Below, piece by piece: positions 1 through 63,450 of a DNA stretch of 63,450 bases; within the stretch, counting starts at the first letter, position 1; each line of letters begins with the position of its first letter. The notes under the pieces are model-generated. The model ran no database searches and was not told the origin of the DNA. It was given only the letters and a program-made list of their open reading frames with translations. Made by a program: the position numbers and the translations under genes. Source of the DNA: Patescibacteria group bacterium (GTDB lineage Bacteria; Patescibacteriota; Saccharimonadia; CAILAD01; JADZBC01); the NCBI GenBank assembly GCA_052034495.1, contig JBPOIL010000018.1, positions 1 through 63,450 on the forward strand. Direction: 5' to 3'.

Positions 1-57
1 GCATTATTGAAGGAGAAGAGGGCGGTTTCTCTCCAGACAAACCACCAAAAACAAACA

Positions 58-3000
58 ATGGCAGATAAAGCCAAATCATTACTCCAAAGGCTCCACCTAA
101 AGCCATCTACCACCCTAAAGGTTAGTAGGACGGCTATTTTTATTCTCCTAGGTCTCATCTCTGTTCAAACCGTAGTCGGCGGACTGCTGTGGTACGCCAA
201 GCAGATTAAGGCGGCAAGTGGATTGCAGTACGTAAAGAGCTATGCAGAAGGCAATGGGGCTGCAAAAGTCATAACTCGAGACAGCCAGAACAACTTATAC
301 ACGTATGATCTGGGTAGCTATACAATCAAGAAGTATGACACGAATGGTAATGACGCCGGTCAAATTGGGGCGAACGGTAGTGGAGTGGGTGAATACGGAG
401 ATGTGAGTGGAATGGCGGTGGATAGCGCCGACAACCTGTACGTGCTTGATTCAGGCAACTTGAGGGTACTAAAGTACGGCTCTGATGGACAATATAGTGG
501 AGTATCGTGGGGGAGTTACGGCACGAATGACGGGGAGTTCGCCTCTCTAGGGTCAATTGCTATAAATTCGTCCAATGAAGTGTACGTAGTAGATTCTGGG
601 AATAGTAGGGTGCAACGCTTTGACGGTTCCGGTGGGTTCATTGGCAAATGGGGCGCTGCGGGTTCTGGAGCAGGACAGTTCACGTACCCATACAGCATAA
701 CGACTGATTCTGCCGGGTCGGTGTACGTTATAGAAGGATTTTCGGGCCGTATTCAGAAGTTCGGGGCTGCCGGCGGCACGCCTACAGTGACGTGGACCCT
801 TGGCGGTAACTGGGGCGGATACATGACTACGGGGCCAAGCGACAGAATATACGTAACGAGCTTAAACGGTAAATTCGTACGGGAGTACAACACAAGTGGC
901 ATGCAGCAAAACTCTTGGGGCGGGTCTGGCAGTGGCTCAGGAACATTTGGCGGCTCATATTTGGACGGAACGATCACGGTTGATACGACTGGCAGCGTAT
1001 ATGTGGCGGACTATGGCAACGCCCATATCCAGAAGTTTACCGCTGCCGGAGTGTATACAGGAGTGTACACAGGCCGGGGAATAGCATCCCAGGTAAGAGA
1101 TGTAGCGACTGACGGCGCGGGTGGGAATATATACGAAGTTGGTGGCGGGACTTTAAGGAAGGTGCGAAGGTCAGACGGGCGCTTGCTTATGAGCGTCAGT
1201 ATTGCCGGGAGCGCAGTGGACGTTTCTCCTGATGGCAGCTTCGTGTATGTTTTGAGTCAAGGCTGGTCTGACCCGAACTCTCGTATGACAAAGCTTACGT
1301 CTGCGGGCGTTGTTTCAGCTCAATGGGGCACATTCGGTGAGGCTGAAAACCAGTTCAAGGGAGCTGAAGCGATGGCGGTAGGTAGCGATGGCAGTGTGTA
1401 CGTTGCTGATACAGCTAACCACCGCATCCAGAAGTTTGATGCTAATGGAGTATTCCAGCGCATGTGGGGCTGGGGCGTGGAGGATGGTTCATCGGCGTTC
1501 CAGGTGTGTACCACTGGGTGTCAAACAGGTATTGCAGGCAATGGCGATGGTCAGTTTGATATGACCGATTGGTACGGTACAGGCGACAATCGCGGCATAG
1601 ATGTGGACAGCCAGGGCAACGTATACGTGGCGGATATGCATAATGCCCGCATCCAAAAATTCAGCTCAGCCGGTGCATTTTCGGGCAAGTGGGGCGTGTT
1701 TAGCGACAGTCAGGGCAACTTCAAATACCCATACGCAATTGCGATTGATGGGCAGGATAACATCTACATAGCCTGCTTGCAGGGGGCTGGCGAACGGATA
1801 CAGCGCTTTAATTCGAGTATGCAGTTTGTTTCACAAATTACAACAAGCGGGAACACAGTTCTTGACGACCCAGAAGGAATCGCGACCGATGAGCAAGGGC
1901 ATTTGTATGTAGCCGACACTTCGAATAGCCGCATCCAGCAGTTTAAGTACAACTTCTGGCTATCAATATCAGACACCGGAAGCGGGAGTGGCACGACGGG
2001 CGAGGCATACTCGAGTACGGTGGGTATTGATGACCCTCAGGGAGCAACGACATTTGCGCTTGTAAGCGGAGAGTTGCCACCAGGGCTGTCTCTTAACAGT
2101 GCAACTGGGGAGATATCGGGCACACCAACCTTGGCGGGTCAGTATTCCTCTGTAATTAGCGTTACCGACGGGCAGACTACAGTGAATACTCCGGGCACGA
2201 GTATTACGATTGAGGATCCTCCCCCCGACCCACTTGCATTTGCATCGGCAACGCTCCCTAATGCGCGTTCAGGGGTAGCATATTCCCGTACTATTGGCCT
2301 AAGTAGCGTTGTTGGAACACCACACTACGAGAACATCACGGGGATTATTCGGTATGATCGGGAGGGATACGGACTGGGTATGGCATCCGGCCTAGAAATG
2401 GCGTTCAATACGACTACTGGCTTGCTTTCAGGTACGCCATCGGCAAATGTGGGTACCTACAGGTTCACTCTGGAGGCATATGACGATCGATGGCAGGTTG
2501 TTTCGCAGCAGTTTACGCTGGTCGTAGACTCTGCGCATCAAGTTACAACTCTGCCGGCGACGAACATCGTAGATGGCTTTACGGACATTACTGCGACGCT
2601 GAATGGCGCAACGAATTACCCAGATGAAATTACAGCCCGTGGCTTTCAGTATGGGCTTGATACCAATTACGGCACACAAATAGCCGATACGACTGTTGCC
2701 CCAGGATACACTGAAGTCCAATCTTGGGATACTGTTGCTAACATTGCGACACAGTCAAACGGAGGCTGGGGCATGGCTTTGGATAAAGATGAGAATCGCT
2801 ATCTAGTCGATTCGGCGAATAATCGAATCCTGAAATATTCAAAGAGCGGAGTGCTCCAGGCAACTTGGGGATCAGCCGGGGCTGGAGATGGGCAGTTCGA
2901 TGCGCCGGCAGACATTGCAATTGGCCCGAGCGGTAAGTTCTACGTTATTGAAGGTGGTAACAGTAGGGTGCAGGTATTAAATAGCAATGGTGATTATGAA

Positions 3001-6000
3001 AGGCAATTTGCTATCCCGACGGGGCGTGGCCAGTCTATAGCCGTTGATTCCAACGAGGACATTTATGTAAGCGGAGATGCGAGAACCGGTCCATGGTATT
3101 CGTATGATTGGAACCCATACCTCAGAAAGTATGATTCGTCTGCCAACTTCAACTTGTTGATCGAAATATCGGCTGGTCAGGGGCGTGATGACGGCCAGTT
3201 TTGGTGGGCGGCAGATGATCTTGTGGTGGACGGCAATGATTATCTTTATGCGGTAGATGGGAGCAACAACCGAGTCCAGAAGTTTGATAGCGCTGGTCAG
3301 TTTGATCTGGTGATTGGAGGTACCGGGCCTGGTAATTACGGCGCAGGTTCGACAGATGGCCAGTTTGACTATCCGCGGGCTGTAGCGGTTGATGTGAGTA
3401 ATAACGTGTATGTGGTTGATAATGGGCGAGCTCAGCGGTTTGGCCCTAACGGGGTCTTTAAGGCTAGCTGGAACAGTACCACCTATTATGAACTCTCTAT
3501 TGGGGTAGACCTGGAAGGTAATGTGATTGCTTCATCCTATAACAACCCCCATCAGCTCGTTAAGTATTCATCTGCTATCCAGGCAGACATCTCTGGGCTA
3601 GCCTGTAGTACGACGTACCACTACCGAGCTTTTGCCACGAATGCCGATGGCACAAAGTACGGAAGTGATGCAACGTTTACAACACCAGACTGCCCTGATA
3701 CGCCAATTAACATAACGAACACCAGCCTTCTCGGGGGCACGGAGGGGACGTATTACCAGGACTTGGTCGGCGTAGAAAATGACACTGGGCAGGTTACCTA
3801 CACTGTGGTGTCTGGTAATTTGCCTTCCGGGCTAAGCTTGAACAGTAGTACGGGGTACATTACGGGGACTCCAAACTATGGCGAGACGGCCAACTTTACC
3901 GTGCGAGCGCAGGACAGCAATTCATATGACGACCAGAGCTATAGCATTACTATTGAGGCGCTGCCATTGCCGCCGCTGCAGATTACTACAACGACGTTGC
4001 CCGACGGAGTCCTCCTGTATAACTCTCAGTACGAATACTATGACCAGTATGTCTATACAGCAGATTACTACGATGGAGTTAACTTTACTCTTGAGTCGGG
4101 GACTTTGCCTCCAGGGCTAGAGTTGGCCAACTCAGGTGGATACAACGCTAGGATTTCTGGCTATCCGACCACTCCCGGCACGTATACATTTACTCTCCAG
4201 GCCGATGATGGCCGGTGGCAGGGCAATAATGGGGTCGACACCCAGGAATACACCATTGTGGTCCCTGAACCTACGTACCCCGATATCTACATCGATACTA
4301 CTAGTCTAAATAATGCCCGCGAAGGCATGCCTTATAATGCGACCATTTACTACCAGAACTCTCGTGCTACGCCTGTGTTCTCGCTCGTGTCCGGTTCTCT
4401 CCCGGAAGGGATCGCTCTCACCCTTGAGGGCTTCTTGGAGGGCACATCAACTACCCCTGGCACCTATACCTTTACGGTACAGGCGGATGATGGCTTCAGC
4501 ACTGATACGCAAGAACTTACGCTTACCGTACTCTCTGCTCCTGCCCCTGTTGTGAATACTCCCTTCGTAACCATCACTTCGCCAGGTACCGGAGCTACCT
4601 TTATCGGTGGAGCATCTACCATTACCGGTACTGGCCCTGCTAATCAAGCAATTTCGCTCTTCGTTGATAACCAGCAAATAGGCACTACTACTAACTCCGA
4701 AGGCCTCTGGAGTTACCAAGCCGTCAACATTGCGGCAGGCAACCACACTCTTGACGCAAAGTGGATACCCGGCGCAGAGGTGATGTTTGTGCCGATAATT
4801 GATATGGAAGCTATGCGTACAGTGCTTAAGGTTTACGACACATCGACCGACATACTAATTAAAGAAGTGGTGTTGCCGGGCTACTCCTTTGGCTTGACGG
4901 CGGTAGCTGCTCCCGGCAGCCACAAGGTCCAGGTGTTTGGCTATGGCGTTACGGTGAGCTCTACAGTTTGGGAGCTAGACACATACGATGGAAGTATTCG
5001 AGAATATGTCGCCCCTGGCTACCCGGTATTCTCGGCCGTGCCATCACCTGACGGAAGTAGAGTATATACAGTATCTATGGGGAATCAGCTCCGAGTTTTT
5101 ACGTCTGGGCAGGGGTTCGAGGAGGATTCGCTAGATATCAGCACTGGCCAGGTATACGATTCTCCTGCCGCGCTTAGGATATCGGATGACGGGGAAGAGC
5201 TTTACGCCGTTATATTTGATTCGTATGGCCAAGATGCCCCGCTACCCCACATCATTAGAACGATTTCTACAGACAATTTATCCATAGGATCTACAATTGA
5301 AGTTACATCTGTGGCCGACGTTAACACGCGTGAGTGGGCGAGTGGCTTTGGGGTGGCAGGAAGTGTTGCTTACGTCCCTCATGTGTCTAGGTTTGCGCCC
5401 AACGGCTATAACGGCCTGGCCGCTATTCGGCTCTACAACCTTACTGACGGTTCATTGATCCGCAGTGTCCCGGTATCTACTCTGAGTGATGTCGAAGATG
5501 GTGGCTATATACCGTACGGGTACATGCATATTGATACGGTGAATCAGCTCGCTTATACGAGCGCCGTAAGCAACTTTGGTCCTACCAGGTCTAGGGCTCT
5601 CTTGAGAATTAACCTACAGACTGACGAGGTAACGGTTGTTCAGTTATTGTCGACGACAACGTCTGATTCTCCGTACATGGTCTTAAGTGGTGTTTCGCCA
5701 GCCTTATCTGCTGGTAAGCTTTATCTCGCCCCATACATGACGGATGGCCCTAATGCTGGCCTAGAGGCGTATGACGTTAATACCCAATCAATTTTGGCAG
5801 ACGAAAGGCACCCAATTCTGACAGAATTTTCGCTCTCCCTCGGCTCCAACTTCATCGGCTCCATCACTCCACCAAAGGATAGCATCGCCTTCAGCGTCCC
5901 TGGAGGTGGCAACCCAACCTGCGAACAGCTTGGTAACTGCCCTCAAACCTGTGAAGAGCTCGGCAACTGTCCTCAAACCTGCGAACAGCTCGGCAATTGC

Positions 6001-6435
6001 CCTAAGCCACCAACCTGCGAAGAAACTAGCACATGTCCAACTACGGTTGTACCTCCAACACCTCCTACGACCTCTGTAACGCCCAAGATCATTTCAACCC
6101 AGTTCCCAACCCCTGCAGCTACTCCGAGCACCTCACGCCTCGGCTGGTTAGACCGTACTGCATTGGCTGTAGCTCGCTTTGTGCCACAACAAGCTGCCAT
6201 AGGCTTCCCATACGTCCTCTTTGTCCTCCTCCTATGCTTTGCCCTGTCTCTGTACTACCAAAGTAGTAATGAAATACGTAAAGACAAACTCAACCGTGAC
6301 TTCCTAGCCAAACGAACCTCCATCCGTGCCCAACAAGACAACTTCATAGCCCTAGCCTCACACTACCTCAATACCCCCATTACCATCATCCAGGGTGGAG
6401 TAGAGCTGGAAGAGGGGAAGAGGGGGCGTCGTTGA
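58..6435 (+). CDS. Giant cell-surface protein: multiple NHL-repeat beta-propellers, Ig-like (He_PIG/Fn3-type) modules, Cys-rich stalk, C-terminal TM anchor and a terminal HisKA H-box
   Basis: Longest ORF in the window (track 7..6435 starts at TTG; the first ATG at 58 precedes the hydrophobic anchor AIFILLGLISVQTVVGGLLWY; the frame is also open to the window edge). More than 12 copies of the NHL-type motif Y(V/I)xDxxNxR(I/V)QKF. Repeated SGxLPxGLSLNxxTGxISGTP modules. 3x TCEQLGNCPQ repeat, P/T-rich linker, TM FPYVLFVLLLCFALSLYY. The protein ends FIALASHYLNTPITIIQGG, matching the HisKA consensus (SHELRTPL). Confidence 0.85.
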   Translation: MADKAKSLLQRLHLKPSTTLKVSRTAIFILLGLISVQTVVGGLLWYAKQIKAASGLQYVKSYAEGNGAAKVITRDSQNNLYTYDLGSYTIKKYDTNGNDAGQIGANGSGVGEYGDVSGMAVDSADNLYVLDSGNLRVLKYGSDGQYSGVSWGSYGTNDGEFASLGSIAINSSNEVYVVDSGNSRVQRFDGSGGFIGKWGAAGSGAGQFTYPYSITTDSAGSVYVIEGFSGRIQKFGAAGGTPTVTWTLGGNWGGYMTTGPSDRIYVTSLNGKFVREYNTSGMQQNSWGGSGSGSGTFGGSYLDGTITVDTTGSVYVADYGNAHIQKFTAAGVYTGVYTGRGIASQVRDVATDGAGGNIYEVGGGTLRKVRRSDGRLLMSVSIAGSAVDVSPDGSFVYVLSQGWSDPNSRMTKLTSAGVVSAQWGTFGEAENQFKGAEAMAVGSDGSVYVADTANHRIQKFDANGVFQRMWGWGVEDGSSAFQVCTTGCQTGIAGNGDGQFDMTDWYGTGDNRGIDVDSQGNVYVADMHNARIQKFSSAGAFSGKWGVFSDSQGNFKYPYAIAIDGQDNIYIACLQGAGERIQRFNSSMQFVSQITTSGNTVLDDPEGIATDEQGHLYVADTSNSRIQQFKYNFWLSISDTGSGSGTTGEAYSSTVGIDDPQGATTFALVSGELPPGLSLNSATGEISGTPTLAGQYSSVISVTDGQTTVNTPGTSITIEDPPPDPLAFASATLPNARSGVAYSRTIGLSSVVGTPHYENITGIIRYDREGYGLGMASGLEMAFNTTTGLLSGTPSANVGTYRFTLEAYDDRWQVVSQQFTLVVDSAHQVTTLPATNIVDGFTDITATLNGATNYPDEITARGFQYGLDTNYGTQIADTTVAPGYTEVQSWDTVANIATQSNGGWGMALDKDENRYLVDSANNRILKYSKSGVLQATWGSAGAGDGQFDAPADIAIGPSGKFYVIEGGNSRVQVLNSNGDYERQFAIPTGRGQSIAVDSNEDIYVSGDARTGPWYSYDWNPYLRKYDSSANFNLLIEISAGQGRDDGQFWWAADDLVVDGNDYLYAVDGSNNRVQKFDSAGQFDLVIGGTGPGNYGAGSTDGQFDYPRAVAVDVSNNVYVVDNGRAQRFGPNGVFKASWNSTTYYELSIGVDLEGNVIASSYNNPHQLVKYSSAIQADISGLACSTTYHYRAFATNADGTKYGSDATFTTPDCPDTPINITNTSLLGGTEGTYYQDLVGVENDTGQVTYTVVSGNLPSGLSLNSSTGYITGTPNYGETANFTVRAQDSNSYDDQSYSITIEALPLPPLQITTTTLPDGVLLYNSQYEYYDQYVYTADYYDGVNFTLESGTLPPGLELANSGGYNARISGYPTTPGTYTFTLQADDGRWQGNNGVDTQEYTIVVPEPTYPDIYIDTTSLNNAREGMPYNATIYYQNSRATPVFSLVSGSLPEGIALTLEGFLEGTSTTPGTYTFTVQADDGFSTDTQELTLTVLSAPAPVVNTPFVTITSPGTGATFIGGASTITGTGPANQAISLFVDNQQIGTTTNSEGLWSYQAVNIAAGNHTLDAKWIPGAEVMFVPIIDMEAMRTVLKVYDTSTDILIKEVVLPGYSFGLTAVAAPGSHKVQVFGYGVTVSSTVWELDTYDGSIREYVAPGYPVFSAVPSPDGSRVYTVSMGNQLRVFTSGQGFEEDSLDISTGQVYDSPAALRISDDGEELYAVIFDSYGQDAPLPHIIRTISTDNLSIGSTIEVTSVADVNTREWASGFGVAGSVAYVPHVSRFAPNGYNGLAAIRLYNLTDGSLIRSVPVSTLSDVEDGGYIPYGYMHIDTVNQLAYTSAVSNFGPTRSRALLRINLQTDEVTVVQLLSTTTSDSPYMVLSGVSPALSAGKLYLAPYMTDGPNAGLEAYDVNTQSILADERHPILTEFSLSLGSNFIGSITPPKDSIAFSVPGGGNPTCEQLGNCPQTCEELGNCPQTCEQLGNCPKPPTCEETSTCPTTVVPPTPPTTSVTPKIISTQFPTPAATPSTSRLGWLDRTALAVARFVPQQAAIGFPYVLFVLLLCFALSLYYQSSNEIRKDKLNRDFLAKRTSIRAQQDNFIALASHYLNTPITIIQGGVELEEGKRGRR
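5917..6006 (+). repeat. 3 x 30-nt in-frame tandem repeat encoding TCE(Q/E)LGNCP(Q/K)
   Basis: Direct reading: acctgcgaacagcttggtaactgccctcaa / acctgtgaagagctcggcaactgtcctcaa / acctgcgaacagctcggcaattgccctaag. Confidence 0.9.
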
Positions 6436-7679
6436 TGGTTGTAGCTGCACAACGTATACTAGAGCATAAGGGGAATATGCAAGAATCTACACCTAACGTA
6501 AAACAGGATAAGGCGTCATTGGCGGTTGGGCATCTGGATGAAACCGTTGCCCAGACGGCCGATGCTCTGCACGAGTATATGCGTACACAAGAGGACGCTA
6601 GTCCTGATTTGCGCGAGCACACCCAGGCTATGGCCAAAATAGTAGGTACGCTCTCGGCCAAAATCAATGCCGTAGATGAGAGTGGGGGTAAGGACTTTGT
6701 AATACCAGAAACCAAGAACCCACTGCTTAGCCCAGCCTTTTTGGTTCCAGTATTTTTACTAACCACAAGCGTAACCGTAGGGGTGTGGTTATTTTCGCTA
6801 GCCGGCGTACTGAAGGCCGATGTGCTCTACATTATTACTGCTGTGGTGGCTTTTTTGCTCGTGTTCCAGGTGTTGCTGACCAACGTTCGCAACCTACAGC
6901 TACACAGGCGTATAGCTAAGCAGTCACACTTGGCAATCGATGAGGAGTTGAAGCTCGAGAAGGCACGCGCCGAGCTGTTTAGCAGCGCCACAGAAGAGCT
7001 GCAGGGCCACCTGTTTGCGATCACGGCAGAAATACCGCCCGGGACAAACAAGTCCATTGACGATGCTGCCGGCCGGCTCATGTCCTTACTAGATAGGATG
7101 AGCTTGATATCAAACCTTACGAGTCGTGGTGCGGACTATGTATTGAACACCGAGGAGATCGATGTAGCTGCTCAGTTAGCTCATATCATTGCGGGCGGCA
7201 AAGCCGATGCTGGAGATGCCAAGGTGTCGATCGACCTGCACGCGCCAAAGCAAATGGAGTTTGACCTCGACCCACTACTTTTAGAGCAGGCGATCAAGCC
7301 AGTTCTGGATAATGCCGTAAAGTTCAGTAAAGATGTGAGCGGTGGAGGCCAGGTGCACGTCGCCCTCAAGCCGTATAAGGAGGGGTTTGAGCTCCGTATC
7401 ACTGACAATGGTCCAGGTATAGCCCCCGAGCGTCGTGCGCAGCTATTTAAGCCGTTCTCGCGCGGAGAGGATGCATTGCGTTTTAACTACGAGGGCGCCG
7501 GACTTGGCTTATACTTGGCCAGCCTGGCAACCGGTTTGCTAGGTGGAAGCCTGGAAATTGCTGATAGCAAGCAGGGGGCCGAGTTCGTTTGGAAATTTAG
7601 TGGATTGAAGCCCGCAACAGATACACAAAAGCCAGGAATAGCTAAGCCGAATAATTCTCTTGCCAAGCACGCCGCATAG
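6435..7679 (+). CDS. Membrane histidine-kinase-like protein with an HATPase_c catalytic domain and a degenerate H-box
   Basis: ATG at 6435 overlaps the upstream TGA (TGATG). Two TM helices are present. ATP-lid boxes: LDNAVKFS (N), ITDNGPGI (G1), FKPFSRG (F), GAGLGLYLA (G2). The DHp position reads ELFSSATEELQGHLFAI, not SHELRTP-like. Confidence 0.8.
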   Translation: MVVAAQRILEHKGNMQESTPNVKQDKASLAVGHLDETVAQTADALHEYMRTQEDASPDLREHTQAMAKIVGTLSAKINAVDESGGKDFVIPETKNPLLSPAFLVPVFLLTTSVTVGVWLFSLAGVLKADVLYIITAVVAFLLVFQVLLTNVRNLQLHRRIAKQSHLAIDEELKLEKARAELFSSATEELQGHLFAITAEIPPGTNKSIDDAAGRLMSLLDRMSLISNLTSRGADYVLNTEEIDVAAQLAHIIAGGKADAGDAKVSIDLHAPKQMEFDLDPLLLEQAIKPVLDNAVKFSKDVSGGGQVHVALKPYKEGFELRITDNGPGIAPERRAQLFKPFSRGEDALRFNYEGAGLGLYLASLATGLLGGSLEIADSKQGAEFVWKFSGLKPATDTQKPGIAKPNNSLAKHAA

Positions 7680-7723: not shown

Positions 7724-8056
7724 ATGAAGAAGAATAATACAGGTAAGTCAGCAGTAATTTTGGCTGGTAGCGTTCTGCCTGCTGCGTACCTGACAGGCAT
7801 GGTTGTGGGACAAGTGTATAAGTACTACAACACAGCAAACGTAGATATCAACTCTGGGCTGGCGTACTTGCGGCAGATTCTAATCAGTAGCTTTGCAGTC
7901 TGGGGTATCGTTGCAGTATCCGCCCTCGTAGCCACTGTTATTGCGCATCGCCAGGGAGATCGTGATAATGCACGCCTCGCTACCATTCTGTTGCTAATCC
8001 AGCTCGGTGTATTCTTAATTCTATTTACGGTTCGCGCAGCCTTCCCGACGCCGTAG
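7724..8056 (+). CDS. Small integral membrane protein (3 predicted TM helices), unknown function
   Basis: ORF with hydrophobic segments, followed by a strong hairpin terminator at 8078-8115. Confidence 0.6.
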   Translation: MKKNNTGKSAVILAGSVLPAAYLTGMVVGQVYKYYNTANVDINSGLAYLRQILISSFAVWGIVAVSALVATVIAHRQGDRDNARLATILLLIQLGVFLILFTVRAAFPTP

Positions 8057-11722: not shown

Positions 11723-13780
11723 CTAAAGGCCACCAACGAGAATCTTCTTGCCACTCAATATATAGACCTGGTTTTGATCATTCGTGGCGTATGCCTGAAT
11801 GGTAGACCCGCTTGGTAGGGCGTACTGCTTGACAAAGCTTAGTCCGCTATCAGCGACAGTCATACTTATCAGGCGCTGCCTACCCTTTGTGGCTGATAGT
11901 GCAGTGGATTGATCAACGAGGCTGATATCAATAAGCCCGGATATGCTTTTTGGTAAATCCTGCACGGGAGTTTCTTCGCCAATACCGTTGGTGAATACCG
12001 CCAGGCTACGAGAGCCGTCCGTAACAATGATTGAGCCATTGATGGCGAGTGCAGTCGAGGACCCGACATCCACCGTGTTGGCCTTTTTAATATAGCTTGA
12101 GCTGGCACTAAAGCCAATCGAGGTGCGGCTGTGCCTGTAGATCTGCTTATCCTGAGGGGAGAGTATATATAAGTTACCTATATAGCTTGCGATGGCGTTA
12201 CCGATTGGCCACGTGCCGCCACTTAACTTTACGTTCGAGAGGGCTTTACCGGGGCTATACTGCCAAACAGAAGATTTAGATGTGAGGATGAATATGGAGT
12301 CCCCTGATGAAGCCGTTGCTGCCGCCACGGCCGAGCGCAGTGCTTCGTTTTGGCCTACCTTCACATACAACTTCTTGGCTGGATCGGCCTGGTAGAGGGT
12401 GCCTGATTTGGTGTCGACGGTATAAAGTCGGTCGTCCATACGTACAAGGAGCGATGCGGAGAAGCCAGAGATTGATGAGAAATCTACAACGTTACTTAGG
12501 CTGAGCCTCGAAACGTTGTTAATCTTATCCTCGATGACGGCAATTTTTGCACTAAGTTGCTTAAGCTCGATGTTCTGCTGGCCAGACAGGTCCGCATCCT
12601 TCTTGATAGCGCGTTCAATCTGGCTCGGAGTATATTCTTCTTGTAGGTCTTTAATTTTAGCCTTTGCGGAGACGACTGCTTTAGAGCTTTGTTCGTCTTT
12701 ACCGAGACTTTCTTGGGCTTCGGCACTTTGAGTGAGGGCAATTACCTCCTTGTAGGTTGTAACGAGGCTGCGATAGTTATAGTTGTTACTTGTGTAAGCG
12801 TACGTACCAATAAGTATGGCTATAACTAAGCCAGCGGTAATCGCCAACGCCTTTCGTGGATTGGGATTAATATGGTTGGTCCAGAGCTTGTTCCACTGAG
12901 TTTTGCTGTGGTGCTTTGCTGTTGGCAGGGCAGAAGTCGTTAGCCAGTGCTGCCCACGCCTTAGACCCATAGTGACTTTCTTCGTTGCCTTGTTGGCAGT
13001 TGGGAGTACCGCAGCCTTGGCATTGTCGAGTTTTGTCTGTTGTCGGCCAGCCATAACGGTGTCGGGGTTGGAATCGAGTGGTTCGTCTGCCGCGTTCTCA
13101 TAGCTAGAAAGCTCAACCATGAGTGCTGCGCAGCGCGCGGCATTCTCGTCCTCGTGGAGCTGTGAATTCATCTTCTGGACGCAGGTGGCAGGCGAGTTGT
13201 CCTGAATGAGCCTATCGAGAGCCTTAGTTTCAAACTCGAACATAACGGCCGGAGTGGCGAAGAACAGCTTATCCTTTTCCTTAAGGGTACCTTCGGCAAT
13301 GCCGTGGAAGGTTTTGGCTGCGTTACTGCCTTCGTTTAGCCCACTAGCCAGATCAATGACGGAGTTTTTGCGATAGAGCTTGGCATGAGCTTTGCCGCAC
13401 TGCGTGAGGTAGAGGCTTTCTTGATTAATCACTCCAATCACAGCACTCAAGCCAGCGAGTTGTTTGCCATGATGTGATTCGTGGAGTTTGGCTAGCTGAG
13501 TATTGAGCGCGGCTACAGCTTTTTCGAAGCGCTTATCGGGCTCATCCGTGAACTTTTTGTTGTAGTACTCTTCGCCAATCGTTTTGATGATAAGGTCCAC
13601 GACCTGGCTAGCTAGGGCATCCTTCGCCATCACCTCTATGGATATAAACAGGCTGCCAAGCTGGTTGTCTTGGTCGGCTGGTGGCTCGAAATGATATGCG
13701 AAAGCAAGCGCGGGCACGGTCGTGTGCTTGGCGGTGTAAGGAATAAGTTTTGCTACGCGTTGAAAGAATTGGGGGTTCAT
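11723..13780 (-). CDS. Hypothetical membrane protein: N-terminal PPM/SpoIIE-like fold, one TM, coiled coil, C-terminal beta-rich (propeller-like) domain
   Basis: 685-aa ORF with TM LAITAGLVIAILIGTYAY. Function unknown; the domain guesses come from sequence pattern only. Confidence 0.6.
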   Translation of the reverse strand: MNPQFFQRVAKLIPYTAKHTTVPALAFAYHFEPPADQDNQLGSLFISIEVMAKDALASQVVDLIIKTIGEEYYNKKFTDEPDKRFEKAVAALNTQLAKLHESHHGKQLAGLSAVIGVINQESLYLTQCGKAHAKLYRKNSVIDLASGLNEGSNAAKTFHGIAEGTLKEKDKLFFATPAVMFEFETKALDRLIQDNSPATCVQKMNSQLHEDENAARCAALMVELSSYENAADEPLDSNPDTVMAGRQQTKLDNAKAAVLPTANKATKKVTMGLRRGQHWLTTSALPTAKHHSKTQWNKLWTNHINPNPRKALAITAGLVIAILIGTYAYTSNNYNYRSLVTTYKEVIALTQSAEAQESLGKDEQSSKAVVSAKAKIKDLQEEYTPSQIERAIKKDADLSGQQNIELKQLSAKIAVIEDKINNVSRLSLSNVVDFSSISGFSASLLVRMDDRLYTVDTKSGTLYQADPAKKLYVKVGQNEALRSAVAAATASSGDSIFILTSKSSVWQYSPGKALSNVKLSGGTWPIGNAIASYIGNLYILSPQDKQIYRHSRTSIGFSASSSYIKKANTVDVGSSTALAINGSIIVTDGSRSLAVFTNGIGEETPVQDLPKSISGLIDISLVDQSTALSATKGRQRLISMTVADSGLSFVKQYALPSGSTIQAYATNDQNQVYILSGKKILVGGL

Positions 13781-35948: not shown

Positions 35949-37454
<1,506 letters not shown>

Positions 37455-41828: not shown

Positions 41829-41905
41829 TGGGCGATTAGCTCAGGTGGTTAGAGCGCGTCACTGATAATGACGAGGTCCCAGGTTCAAGTCCTGGATCGC
41901 CCACC
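41829..41905 (+). tRNA. tRNA-Ile(GAU): tRNA-Ile (anticodon GAU), CCA encoded
   Basis: Manual cloverleaf: GGGCGAT/ATCGCCC acceptor, GCTC/GAGC D-stem, CGTCA-CTGATAA-TGACG anticodon arm, CCAGG-TTCAAGT-CCTGG T-arm, then A-CCA. Confidence 0.95.
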
Positions 41906-42008
41906 AAGCATAAGTATTATAGATATAGGCCCCATCCGAGGGGTCTTTTCATTTCCTGCTTTCCAGGGTGTGATGTTGCTACTCTGTCCGAGCATTCAGT
42001 ACGGGTTT

Positions 42009-46997: not shown

Positions 46998-47074
46998 GGG
47001 GCATTAGCTCAGCTGGTTAGAGCGCCTGCTTTGCAAGCAGGAGGTCGTCGGTTCGACTCCGACATGCTCCACCA
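46998..47074 (+). tRNA. tRNA-Ala(UGC): tRNA-Ala (anticodon UGC), G3-U70 present, CCA encoded
   Basis: GGGGCAT/ATGCTCC acceptor (G3-U70), CCTGC-TTTGCAA-GCAGG anticodon arm, GTCGG-TTCGACT-CCGAC T-arm. Confidence 0.95.
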
Positions 47075-60002: not shown

Positions 60003-60896
60003 TATTAGTTAAGAACGAGCAACCGAGCATGAGTAAACAAACTACTACCGGAGGCGCTAAGGCCTAAGCACTTGTTTGTTCCTGCTTGGTCGCCTCGAAG
60101 CCCTGCTTCATAAGCGGCCATTTTTTGTTCATTGAAATATGAATACTAACAAGGGTAATACAATTACACCAAAAGAAGACAATTTGATATTTTCAAATTG
60201 TCAGTCAAAATGTTCAAACGAGTTAAGAAGTTACTTAAGAGCACATGATGAATGCCTTGACGTGATACGCCGAAGAAGGTCGTAGAAGGCTGCGATAAGC
60301 CCCGGGGAGCTGCCAATCAAGCTTTGATCCGAGGATAACCGAATGGGGAAACCCGGCTAGGGTAATGCCTAGTCACCCTATGATGAATATATAGTCATAG
60401 TGGAGGGCACCCCCCGAACTGAAACATCTAAGTAGGGGGAGGAGAAGAAAACAACCGTGAGTCCCAAAGTAGTGGCGAGCGAAATGGGATCAGCCAAAAC
60501 TTATTCGCTTCCTGTAGTACCTGTACGTAACCAATTAGTTTACTAGTTGGAGCAGTATAGACAACGCAGGTTACCTCAATAATAGCGAAGAGGGTTGCGA
60601 GGTATTGACGAATATTTTGCGTTTTAGTATTTGGTCACTATGGACTTGTTCCTTAGTTACCAATTGCTAAGCGCTAAGTATGACCACCGATGAGGATCGA
60701 GTGGATAAAGTTACAAAACAGATTTGTTAGAAGAAGGAGCCTGGAAGGGACCGCCAAAGAGCGTGATAGCCGCGTATTCGAAAACACTCTGTCTTTATGT
60801 CAATATACTCAAGTAGGTCGGGACACGTGAAACCCTGACTGAATCTGGGAGGACCACCTCCCAAGGCTAAATACGTATCATGATCGATAGTGAACG

Positions 60897-60927
<31 letters not shown>

Positions 60928-62478
60928 GTAAGGGGAGTGAAATAGAATCCTGAAATCATGTGCTTACAATGAGTGGGAGCCGGCTTGTCCGGTGACCGCG
61001 TGCTTTTTGTAGAACGATCCAGCGAGTTAATGTATACGGCGTTAGGTTAAGTCTTTTTCAAGATGGAGCCGTAGTGAAAGCGAGGGTTAATAGCCCGAAT
61101 TAGTCGTATGTATTAGACCCGAAACCGGGTGACCTAACCATGGGCAGGCTGAAGCTTCGGTAAAACGGAGTGGAGGGCCGAACCACCGCACGTTGTAAAG
61201 TGCTTGGATGACCTGTGGTTAGCGGAGAAATTCCAATCGAACCCGGAGATAGCTGGTTCTCCTCGAAATAGCTTTAGGGCTAGCGTCATAAACTACTGCT
61301 CGGAGGTAGAGCACTGAATGGGTTAGGGCCGTTTACGGTACCACGCCCAACCAAACTCCGAATGCCGAGCAAGACTATTATGGCAGTCAGAAAGTGGGAG
61401 CTAAGTTCCATTTTCGAAAGGGAAACAGCCCAGACCGCCGTCTAAGGTCCCAAAGTCATAGCTAAGTGGGAAACGAGGTGAGATTGCATAAACAACCAGG
61501 ATGTTGGCTTAGAAGCAGCCATGCATTTAAAGAGTGCGTAACAGCTCACTGGTCAATCGTGATCTTGCGCGGAAAATATATCGGGGCTAAAGCTATGCAC
61601 CGAAGACGCGGATTGTCTACATTTGTAGATAGTGGTAGAGGAGCGTTCCTCACGCACTGAAGTCAAACCGTGAGGTTTGGTGGAGTGTGGGGAAGTGAGA
61701 ATGCTGGAATGAGTAACTATAAGGTAGGTGAGAATCCTACCCACCGTAAGACCAAGGTTTCCTGGGCAACGTTTATCGTCCCAGGGTTAGTCGGGCCTAA
61801 GCCGAGGCGAGTAGCGTAGGCGATGGACAACAGGTTGATATTCCTGTACCGGCTGTATTGTTCCCAGACAAGACGCAGGATGGTAGCTAGAGCGGTTTCA
61901 TGGCTATAGCCGTCTAAGCAGGTAGTCACGTAGTAATACGTGGTGAGACGCGAATGAAATCCTAGCAATAGGAGATTCTAGCAAGCCAAACTGACTAGAA
62001 AATTGTCTGATTAATAGATACAGTCGCCCGTACCGATAACCAACTCAGGTGGTCGGGTCGAGTAGACCAAGGTGCTCGGGAGAACCCTCGTTAAGGAACT
62101 CGGCAATATAGCGACCGTAACTTCGGGATAAGGTCTGCCGGGGCGTACCACAGTGACTTCAATGTCGCTGATTGGTAATGTAGGTTTTGCCTACAGTGCT
62201 TAGAGGTATTCTTTGTGCAATGAACATTTGCACTCAGTAATACAAAACCAATCCAGTTAGGGATAAATCTTAATCCCTAACAGCAGAGACATTGGATTCA
62301 ACTGTGGTGCGTCTCGGCCGCAGCGAAAGAACCCATGCGACTGTTTATCAAAAACACAGGTTTGTGCGAACACGAAAGTGGATGTATACGAACTGACGCC
62401 TGCCCAGTGCTGGAAGGTTAAGTGGCGTTGTGCAAGCAGCAAAATGAAGCCCCAGTAAACGGCGGCCCTAACTATAAG

Positions 62479-63238
<760 letters not shown>

Positions 63239-63450
63239 GAAGTTCCGACCTGCACGAATGGCGTAACGATATGGGTACTGTCTCAACGAGGGACCCGGTG
63301 AAATTGCAATAGCGGTAAAGATGCCGTTTACCCGCACCAAGACGGATAGACCCCGTGCAGCTTTACTACAGCTTGGCATTGTGTCCGGTCTTACTTTGTG
63401 TAGCATAGGTGGGAGACTTTGAAGCATTGACGCTAGTCGATGTGGAGTCG

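Follow-up and report, generated by a model that had tools for sequence, protein, structure and literature searches.

Two overlapping genes on contig JBPOIL010000018.1 from a Saccharimonadia genome raise the question of whether a HisKA-type sensor histidine kinase can be naturally divided between two membrane proteins. Within the 63,450-nt stretch of DNA that was analyzed as a whole (hereafter, the window), open reading frame 1 (ORF1) encodes a giant surface protein whose C-terminus resembles a phospho-acceptor helix, and ORF2, which starts inside the ORF1 stop codon, encodes a membrane protein with a kinase-type ATPase domain. The original prediction for this locus, made from the sequence of the window, offered two explanations: a kinase separated into a sensor/phospho-acceptor subunit and a catalytic subunit acting in trans, or a frameshift, read-through or sequencing error within a single enormous kinase. 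Comparisons with related genomes, domain profiles, and structure models led us to favor the first: ORF1 and ORF2 probably make up a HisKA-type sensor histidine kinase of Saccharimonadia that is naturally split into two subunits.

The ORF1 gene is organized as follows, where TM denotes transmembrane and DHp the dimerization and histidine phosphotransfer domain:

58..6435, + strand: ORF1, putative sensor and phospho-acceptor subunit, 2,125 aa if translation starts at the first ATG, 58 (frame open over 7-6435)
121..177, + strand: N-terminal signal-anchor or TM helix, residues 22-40, from a hydropathy scan
5916..6003, + strand: 30-bp tandem repeat of 2.9 copies, coding for a Cys-rich stalk (CEQLGNCPQT) just outside the membrane, before the C-terminal TM helix
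6196..6252, + strand: C-terminal TM helix, residues 2047-2065, AIGFPYVLFVLLLCFALSL, from a hydropathy scan
6253..6432, + strand: cytoplasmic tail, predicted DHp helix 1 with H-box DNFIALASHYLNTPITIIQ, from Pfam HisKA, NCBIfam, and alignment to fused relatives

Pfam searches assigned NHL (E 2e-57, in 8 stretches), the Ig-like He_PIG (7e-36), and Big_7 domains to ORF1. Comparable Cys/Pro/Thr-rich stalks of differing sizes occur in its relatives. The length of the protein and the hydropathy scan bear out the earlier description of a giant extracellular protein with a single C-terminal TM helix, and this helix is partly invariant across aligned tails. The cytoplasmic tail of 60 residues includes DNFIALASHYLNTPITIIQGG and runs to the stop codon as SIRAQQDNFIALASHYLNTPITIIQGGVELEEGKRGRR. 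Its candidate phospho-acceptor is His2102, encoded by CAC at 6361-6363, the same codon that had been singled out originally. The chain ends 23 residues past His2102 and 6 residues past the H-box motif; the early stop noted before thus stands, while the figure of about 10 further residues does not. When the isolated 94-aa tail was searched, the Pfam HisKA match covered profile positions 2-26 of 66 (E 5e-4, 20.4 bits), and therefore helix 1 alone of the HisKA domain. An H-box with the acceptor His on DHp helix 1 was accordingly found in the tail as FIALASHYLNTPITII, at a HisKA score below threshold. Among NCBIfam models, the PhoR H-box region matched the tail, and only generic kinase models were matched, far under their cut-offs. 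Alignment of ORF1 with five relatives showed the last ~75 residues to be 80-92% identical, versus 33-39% for the preceding 525 residues and 39-60% for whole ectodomains, and the H-box stretch was invariant in 5/5 aligned tail sequences. Judged from these identities, no other part of the giant proteins is as constrained as the tail.

The ORF2 gene has the following features:

6435..7679, + strand: ORF2, putative catalytic subunit, 414 aa; its orthologues, in 12 clusters of 388-423 aa, are all free-standing proteins
6513..6689, + strand: N-terminal cytoplasmic helices, comprising an extra helix (residues 27-53) and, at residues 55-85 (LREHTQAMAKIVGTLSAKINAVD), the probable counterpart of DHp helix 2, which contains the invariant His62
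6738..6878, + strand: TM hairpin, residues 102-120 and 130-148, from a hydropathy scan; the same hairpin occurs in fused relatives
6882..7136, + strand: His-less DHp-like hairpin, helix 1' at ~150-199 and helix 2' at ~206-234, with Glu187 (6993-6995) at the His position
7269..7595, + strand: HATPase_c domain, residues 279-387, Pfam E 1.9e-19, with N (DNAVKFS), G1 (DNGPGI), F (LFKPFSRG), and G2 (GAGLGL) boxes

Two TM helices and a complete HATPase_c domain had been described for ORF2, as had a DHp-equivalent helix without the canonical His, and all were recovered. A lookup found the exact ORF2 sequence not to be on record, and orthologues were taken instead. These formed 12 clusters of 58-98% identity, each with HATPase_c as its sole Pfam domain, and the residues of the N, G1, F, and G2 boxes were invariant in the ORF2 alignment. 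The H-box-equivalent stretch of ORF2 reads ATEELQGHL and, among orthologues, AT[D/E]ELQGHLFAIT, with Asp or Glu replacing His. Two other histidines, His62 in the N-terminal region and His192 at +5 from the canonical position, were invariant in all 13 ORF2 sequences aligned. Profile searches of both proteins gave HisKA helix 1 in ORF1 only and HATPase_c in ORF2, where HisKA had no Pfam match. From its sequence, ORF2 looks functional as a catalytic module.

The two genes meet at the following element:

6410..6437, + strand: putative translational-coupling junction, in which Shine-Dalgarno-like GAGGGGG within the 3' end of ORF1 is followed by TGATG; the same layout occurs in loci L001, L010, and L013

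The ORF1 stop codon TGA (6433-6435) and the ORF2 start codon ATG (6435-6437) share their A, as originally described, which places ORF2 in the -1 frame relative to ORF1. Runs of GGGG and GGGGG sit just 5' of the stop, and a slippery heptamer of the form X XXY YYZ was neither present nor conserved among the junction sequences of the window and its relatives. A tail scan of species-representative genomes located the system in metagenome-assembled genomes (MAGs) of Candidatus Saccharibacteria/Saccharimonadia. Orthologues or paralogues of ORF1 that share the tail were found at L001, L010, L013-L016, L009, and L012. The same tail with the TGATG overlap occurred in L001-L003, where ORF2 is 73% identical, and in L010/L011/L013, where it is 66% identical; junction nucleotides differ between the lineages sharing the overlap, and Shine-Dalgarno-like GAGG lies ahead of the ORF2 ATG in all three lineages with adjacent genes. 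On contigs JAYRIB010000004.1 and CAZRJR010000003.1, the ORF2 orthologue has no giant gene upstream, yet lies in the same neighborhood as in the window (aldolase, SmpB, ArgRS, UvrD-like helicase); on each of these contigs, a tail-bearing giant gene lies ~18-19 kb from ORF2, with HIT and BacA genes after it. Contig CAYPSN010000004.1 carries two tail-bearing giants, one (L013) coupled to ORF2 and the other beside HIT/BacA, and one ORF2 was found on it. A tail-bearing giant was thus on ORF2's contig in 3/3 genomes in which both genes were located. Placement of the acceptor and catalytic modules on separate polypeptides is, then, evolutionarily conserved, and the recurrence of the tail motif and of the junction in independent genomes upholds the prediction of a kinase divided into sensor/acceptor and catalytic subunits, whose action in trans we infer. 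Because the genes can be unlinked and one contig carries two giants with one ORF2, a single catalytic subunit is probably shared by two or more sensor subunits.

A homologue search with the 102-aa tail gave three short "proteins" (P0121-P0123), which were rejected as stand-alone peptides since they are truncated gene calls that end long extracellular ORFs. A metagenome scan with the tail alignment gave no matches, and one with the ORF2 alignment gave distant fused members only, with no further split loci among them.

These comparisons bear directly on whether the split could be an artifact or the trace of a decaying gene, produced by an indel, by a recent frameshift or pseudogenization, or by programmed -1 frameshifting. 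The G-runs before the stop, the -1 frame of ORF2, the existence of fused relatives, and a second family copy at L020 that is truly broken by an in-frame TAA in the H-box would all fit such an origin. It would have to account, however, for a stop/start overlap that is shared by independently assembled genomes of diverged species whose junction DNA differs, for genes that are ~18-19 kb apart in two genomes, for the lack of a conserved slippery heptamer, for strong constraint on both the tail and ORF2, and for a Shine-Dalgarno-like motif before the ORF2 ATG in every adjacent-gene lineage, and we regard it as scarcely credible. Since the overlap is shared among diverged genomes, the genes can be unlinked, and no slippery heptamer is present, an error, a recent pseudogene, and frameshifting are excluded for practical purposes; programmed frameshifting was rejected specifically because the slippery site is absent and the genes are unlinked in some genomes. 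The frameshift, read-through or sequencing-error half of the original prediction is therefore abandoned. On comparative grounds, the split of ORF1 and ORF2 is real.

If the split is real, relatives in which the kinase is still whole should show where the gene broke. In L017 (MAG 'bacterium SJ655'), a single ORF of 2,112 aa has a C-terminus colinear with the window tail plus ORF2 (30% identity over 490 aa, E 2e-50), and Pfam assigns it HisKA positions 3-50, i.e., both helices, and HATPase_c. Orthologous loci thus exist in both states, split in several Saccharimonadia genomes and fused in L017 and others. Fused members with small ectodomains are P0124 (497 aa), P0125 (598 aa), and P0126 (606 aa); PF00512 is precomputed for the latter two. 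An ORF2 profile search against 1.84 billion cluster representatives gave ~55 family clusters, in nearly all of which the match is C-terminal in a protein of 500-2,300 aa, and fused members comprise P0124-P0126 plus ~50 further 50%-identity clusters. Family clusters have a common spacing (TM, ~125 aa, then TM-TM). In the domain order obtained by multiple alignment, a TM helix leads into H-box helix 1, a short loop, and helix 2, after which come the TM hairpin, the second hairpin, and the catalytic domain; the ectodomain of fused members varies and is often giant. An upstream H-box on the same chain, with the signature SHYL[N/R]TP, was present in 48/55 representatives; the remaining seven are the split clade itself, four short gene calls (one with a miscalled start), one with an in-frame stop, and one that was not looked into. 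SHYLxTP, including Thr at H+4 and Pro at H+5 (numbered from the acceptor His), was kept in every fused relative with its H-box region recovered. In the metagenome scan, 19/21 family ORFs were fused.

Two candidates for further split members were rejected: P0345 has a miscalled start and its ORF is continuous upstream, and P0377, which follows a 1,051-aa ORF with an in-frame TAA at the Tyr of SHY and a His to Asn change, looks decayed. Short gene calls P0306, P0318, and P0340 could not be resolved. The second family copy at L020 (2821-7086) has a TAA at the Tyr codon of SHY and Asn in place of His (FWHLAAN*LRAPITLLMGG), and looks like a decaying kinase.

According to the alignments, the gene broke within the first DHp, in the loop that follows helix 1, and not between the DHp and the catalytic and ATP-binding (CA) domain. 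The start of ORF2 is a lineage-specific extension that is followed by the helix 2 counterpart. Even in fused relatives, the acceptor DHp hairpin is not contiguous with the catalytic domain on the chain, as the TM hairpin and the second hairpin intervene. In the second hairpin, the canonical His column holds His in 0/55 representatives, fused ones included; the His-less helix of ORF2 is therefore an ancestral trait and not a consequence of the split. The parent order of HisKA, TM hairpin, His-less DHp, and HATPase_c is undescribed: Pfam and NCBIfam have no family-level model for it and our literature searches found no description, nothing on Saccharibacteria kinases, and nothing relevant in a 2026 HisKA-profile preprint.

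The fused relatives also help to judge whether ORF2 is self-sufficient, autophosphorylating its own His192 or His62, with the ORF1 tail serving as signal input only or having another partner. Such autonomy would explain the invariance of both histidines in ORF2 and the existence of orthologues without an adjacent giant gene, and a His at the +5 position, as HY, recurs in 7/55 fused representatives. Most fused relatives, however, lack His at either position while always keeping the upstream H-box, the +5 position matches the conserved Pro of the HisKA motif, and a tail-bearing giant accompanies ORF2 on its contig wherever both genes were located. We know of no HisKA kinase that uses the +5 position as acceptor. 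Autophosphorylation of ORF2 on its own histidines is thus quite improbable.

Structure models were obtained with AlphaFold2 (AF2). For fused P0124 (predicted local distance difference test score, pLDDT, 77), the model has a single long helix from the TM segment through the H-box (residues 67-153), helix 2 at 158-183, a TM hairpin at 205-228 and 233 onward, a second hairpin to 302 and then 312-338, and an alpha/beta catalytic domain. An artificial concatenation of the tail and ORF2 (pLDDT 84, predicted template modeling score 0.74) gave a P0124-like layout plus an extra helix, ORF2 residues 27-53, before helix 2. In Foldseek searches, the second hairpin and catalytic domain of both models matched HK853, CpxA, and other DHp-CA structures (E ~3-5e-14, and 5e-14 for the tail-ORF2 model against HK853 and CpxA), with DivL and RetS also among the matches of the ORF2 core. 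The assignment of helix 2 in ORF2 draws on alignment with fused relatives, AF2 secondary structure, and the conservation pattern, and is not fully settled.

Considered together with the domain content of the two proteins, these models suggest how a split kinase of this type could operate. ORF1 would have retained everything from the ectodomain through the TM helix to the His-bearing helix 1, and ORF2 the helix 2 counterpart, the extra helix, the TM hairpin, the His-less dimerization hairpin, and the catalytic domain. In the membrane, ORF1 helix 1 would pack with the N-terminal helices of ORF2; a ligand-dependent signal would travel down the ORF1 TM helix, whereupon the ORF2 catalytic domain would phosphorylate His2102 of ORF1 in trans. 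The phosphoryl group would then pass to a response regulator encoded elsewhere.

Several points weigh against this reading. Trans-phosphorylation of ORF1 by ORF2 is itself a step that we infer, and so is the packing of the ORF1 helix against ORF2, as the AF2 model is of a single-chain artificial concatenation. ORF2 carries an extra N-terminal helix where fused forms have none, and an hhalign comparison with the fused helix 1-helix 2 region, asking whether this helix is a degenerate copy of helix 1, was ambiguous (P 0.025). The HisKA matches score 20-24 bits, under the Pfam gathering score of 26.9. HisKA kinases use an acidic residue at H+1 in autophosphorylation; here H+1 is Tyr (SHYL) instead of Glu/Asp, in the window and in essentially the whole family, and the phosphorylation chemistry may therefore depart from the textbook case. 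Finally, no receiver domain turned up in the window when all its ORFs of 70 aa or more were searched by phmmer with CheY, PhoB, and NarL queries, in agreement with the earlier remark that no response regulator is adjacent, and no receiver domain was found at any Saccharimonadia locus examined. Response regulators are present in loci L035, L040, and L042. In favor of the reading, the intact fused giant copy at L020 has a single-domain response regulator of 137 aa (2327-2740) immediately after it.

Some of these same points would be expected if the ORF1 tail helix served in docking or regulation instead of accepting a phosphoryl group, its His being structural and the helix either modulating an ATPase/pseudokinase or anchoring the giant protein to a membrane partner. 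Tyr at H+1 and the lack of a response regulator nearby would suit a docking tail, as would conservation that covers the whole helix and not His alone. So would the appearance of DivL and RetS among the structural neighbors of the ORF2 core, these being kinase-like proteins that signal by protein contacts and not by their own phosphorylation. A purely structural role sits poorly, however, with an H-box that is invariant in the five aligned tails and an SHYLxTP signature that the fused relatives keep, with the retention of all ATP-binding boxes in ORF2, and with the response regulator directly after the fused member at L020. We therefore consider a docking-only tail unlikely. ORF2 is like DivL and RetS in having a DHp-CA core without His at the canonical site and unlike them in keeping all ATP-binding motifs, and its fused relatives carry a bona fide H-box on the same chain. 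A system that signals without any phospho-acceptor of its own is not what was found, as the H-box lies upstream in fused relatives and on ORF1 here. Since the ATP motifs are kept and the fused relatives have an H-box, ORF2 appears to be the catalytic part of an active kinase and not a pseudokinase.

How, then, does a split kinase composed of ORF1 and ORF2 compare with known systems? To our knowledge, natural split kinases have been demonstrated experimentally for the CheA type only. Examples are CheA3/CheA4 of Rhodobacter sphaeroides and Hik36/Hik43 (PilL-N/PilL-C) of Synechocystis (PMC3591291, PMC7656254). Natural split CheA kinases trans-phosphorylate, and separated DHp and CA domains of EnvZ complement in trans in vitro (PMC3591291). 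As in split CheA, the His module and the dimerization-catalytic module are on separate polypeptides whose genes may be unlinked, and neither half would be expected to work alone; like P3 of CheA, the ORF2 module beside the catalytic domain appears to be a His-less helical dimerization element. Split CheA proteins differ in being soluble, receptor-coupled class II kinases with CheW-like domains and with their His on an independent four-helix bundle, the histidine phosphotransfer (HPt) domain P1. In contrast, the candidate acceptor of ORF1 is a HisKA-type H-box helix that runs on from the TM helix of a surface protein of 2,100 aa, the gene is broken within a DHp hairpin, and both subunits are membrane proteins. 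The CheA domain set was not found either: Hpt, H-kinase_dim, and CheW had no Pfam match in ORF1 or ORF2, which gave only the HisKA fragment and HATPase_c. By analogy, split CheA kinases are the closest experimentally known systems, sharing the functional logic and differing in kinase class and domain set.

The locus shares with HK853, EnvZ, CpxA, and PhoR an H-box with Thr at H+4 and Pro at H+5, the DHp-CA fold, HATPase_c with N, G1, F, and G2 boxes, and an input path from ectodomain through TM helix to helix 1. It differs from them in having a TM hairpin and a second, His-less hairpin between the acceptor hairpin and the catalytic domain, Tyr at H+1, an acceptor helix that is on another protein in the window's clade, and no adjacent response regulator; an acidic H+1 residue and a contiguous DHp-CA are thus the two orthodox HisKA features that it lacks. 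HisKA-only proteins also figure in SMART-based counts of candidate split kinases (PMC3591291, Discussion). ORF1 likewise has a HisKA element without HATPase_c, and such elements may adjoin a HATPase_c protein or stand apart from one. The SMART candidates differ in being database counts without evolutionary or structural follow-up, whereas ORF1 holds half of a HisKA domain only and its fission is documented by fused orthologous architectures. The fused family itself resembles CheA in its logic, as its acceptor His module is apart from a His-less dimerization module that carries the catalytic domain. We tentatively propose, at somewhat less than even confidence, a fuller model: a class I kinase in which the acceptor four-helix bundle would be built in trans from two membrane proteins, in which one ORF2 would be shared by at least two giant, fast-evolving sensors at different loci, and whose whole parent family would follow CheA-like logic.

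Gene neighborhoods were compared among fused and split loci. In L022/L026, a fused kinase, either small (497 aa) or giant (2,163 aa), lies beside HIT, RNase H, Bac_transf, glycosyltransferase, and DUF4012 genes, and this neighborhood also includes L20/L35/IF3, bactofilin, and DUF4446. The tail-only giants of L014-L016 share part of it: HIT is adjacent by ORF scan, and the L016 contig has annotated bactofilin and DUF4446 genes at a greater distance; intervening genes at L014-L016 were matched by position and product sequence only, and not by Pfam. Since fused and tail-only giants share part of a neighborhood, fission hit a kinase gene at a conserved locus. The gene may have been split in place and then duplicated, or relocated. 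A model in which an inversion produced the split, drawn from the synteny of L026, L022, and L014-L016, was dropped because a single inversion fails to reproduce the observed order. Tail-only giants without ORF2 at L014, L015, L016, and L009 share the intergenic motif TTATGCTCGC directly after the stop, followed in L015, L016, and L009 only by a TATAAT-like box ahead of the HIT gene.

Other features of the window are as follows:

7724-8056: conserved 110-aa ORF with no family match
11723-13780, - strand: 685-aa ORF
35949-37453: 16S rRNA
41830-41906: tRNA-Ile(GAT)
46998-47074: tRNA-Ala(TGC)
60224-63450: 23S rRNA

The 110-aa ORF follows ORF2 wherever the giant gene is adjacent (window, L001-L003, L010, and L013), and in genomes with a solitary ORF2 gene its place is taken by a NUDIX gene. 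The copy in L013 appears hydrophobic. Orthologues of the 685-aa ORF, of 685-686 aa, lie between ArgRS and a UvrD-like helicase, and those in L001, L004, and L006 have no Pfam annotation, which is a statement about the orthologues and not about the window copy. The rRNA and tRNA genes form a dispersed rRNA operon of ~27 kb with protein-coding ORFs between its members. The 23S match covers model positions 1-2188 over 3,227 nt, implying an insertion of ~1 kb, and an ORF (62720-63205) lies inside.

Splitting of orthodox HisKA kinases has so far been a matter of database suspicion and of the in vitro EnvZ trick (PMC3591291). The locus described here presents a HisKA-type split case, for which related genomes contain both the fused and the split version and the break point lies in the DHp loop. 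Saccharibacteria live as episymbionts and have very few signaling proteins. The direct tie between a giant NHL/Ig surface protein and a kinase suggests a route by which such cells may sense the host cell surface or the environment. If one catalytic subunit is indeed shared, this would be economical for a genome of ~1 Mb, and would amount to a modular 'one kinase, many receptors' design in the ultra-small genome of an episymbiont.

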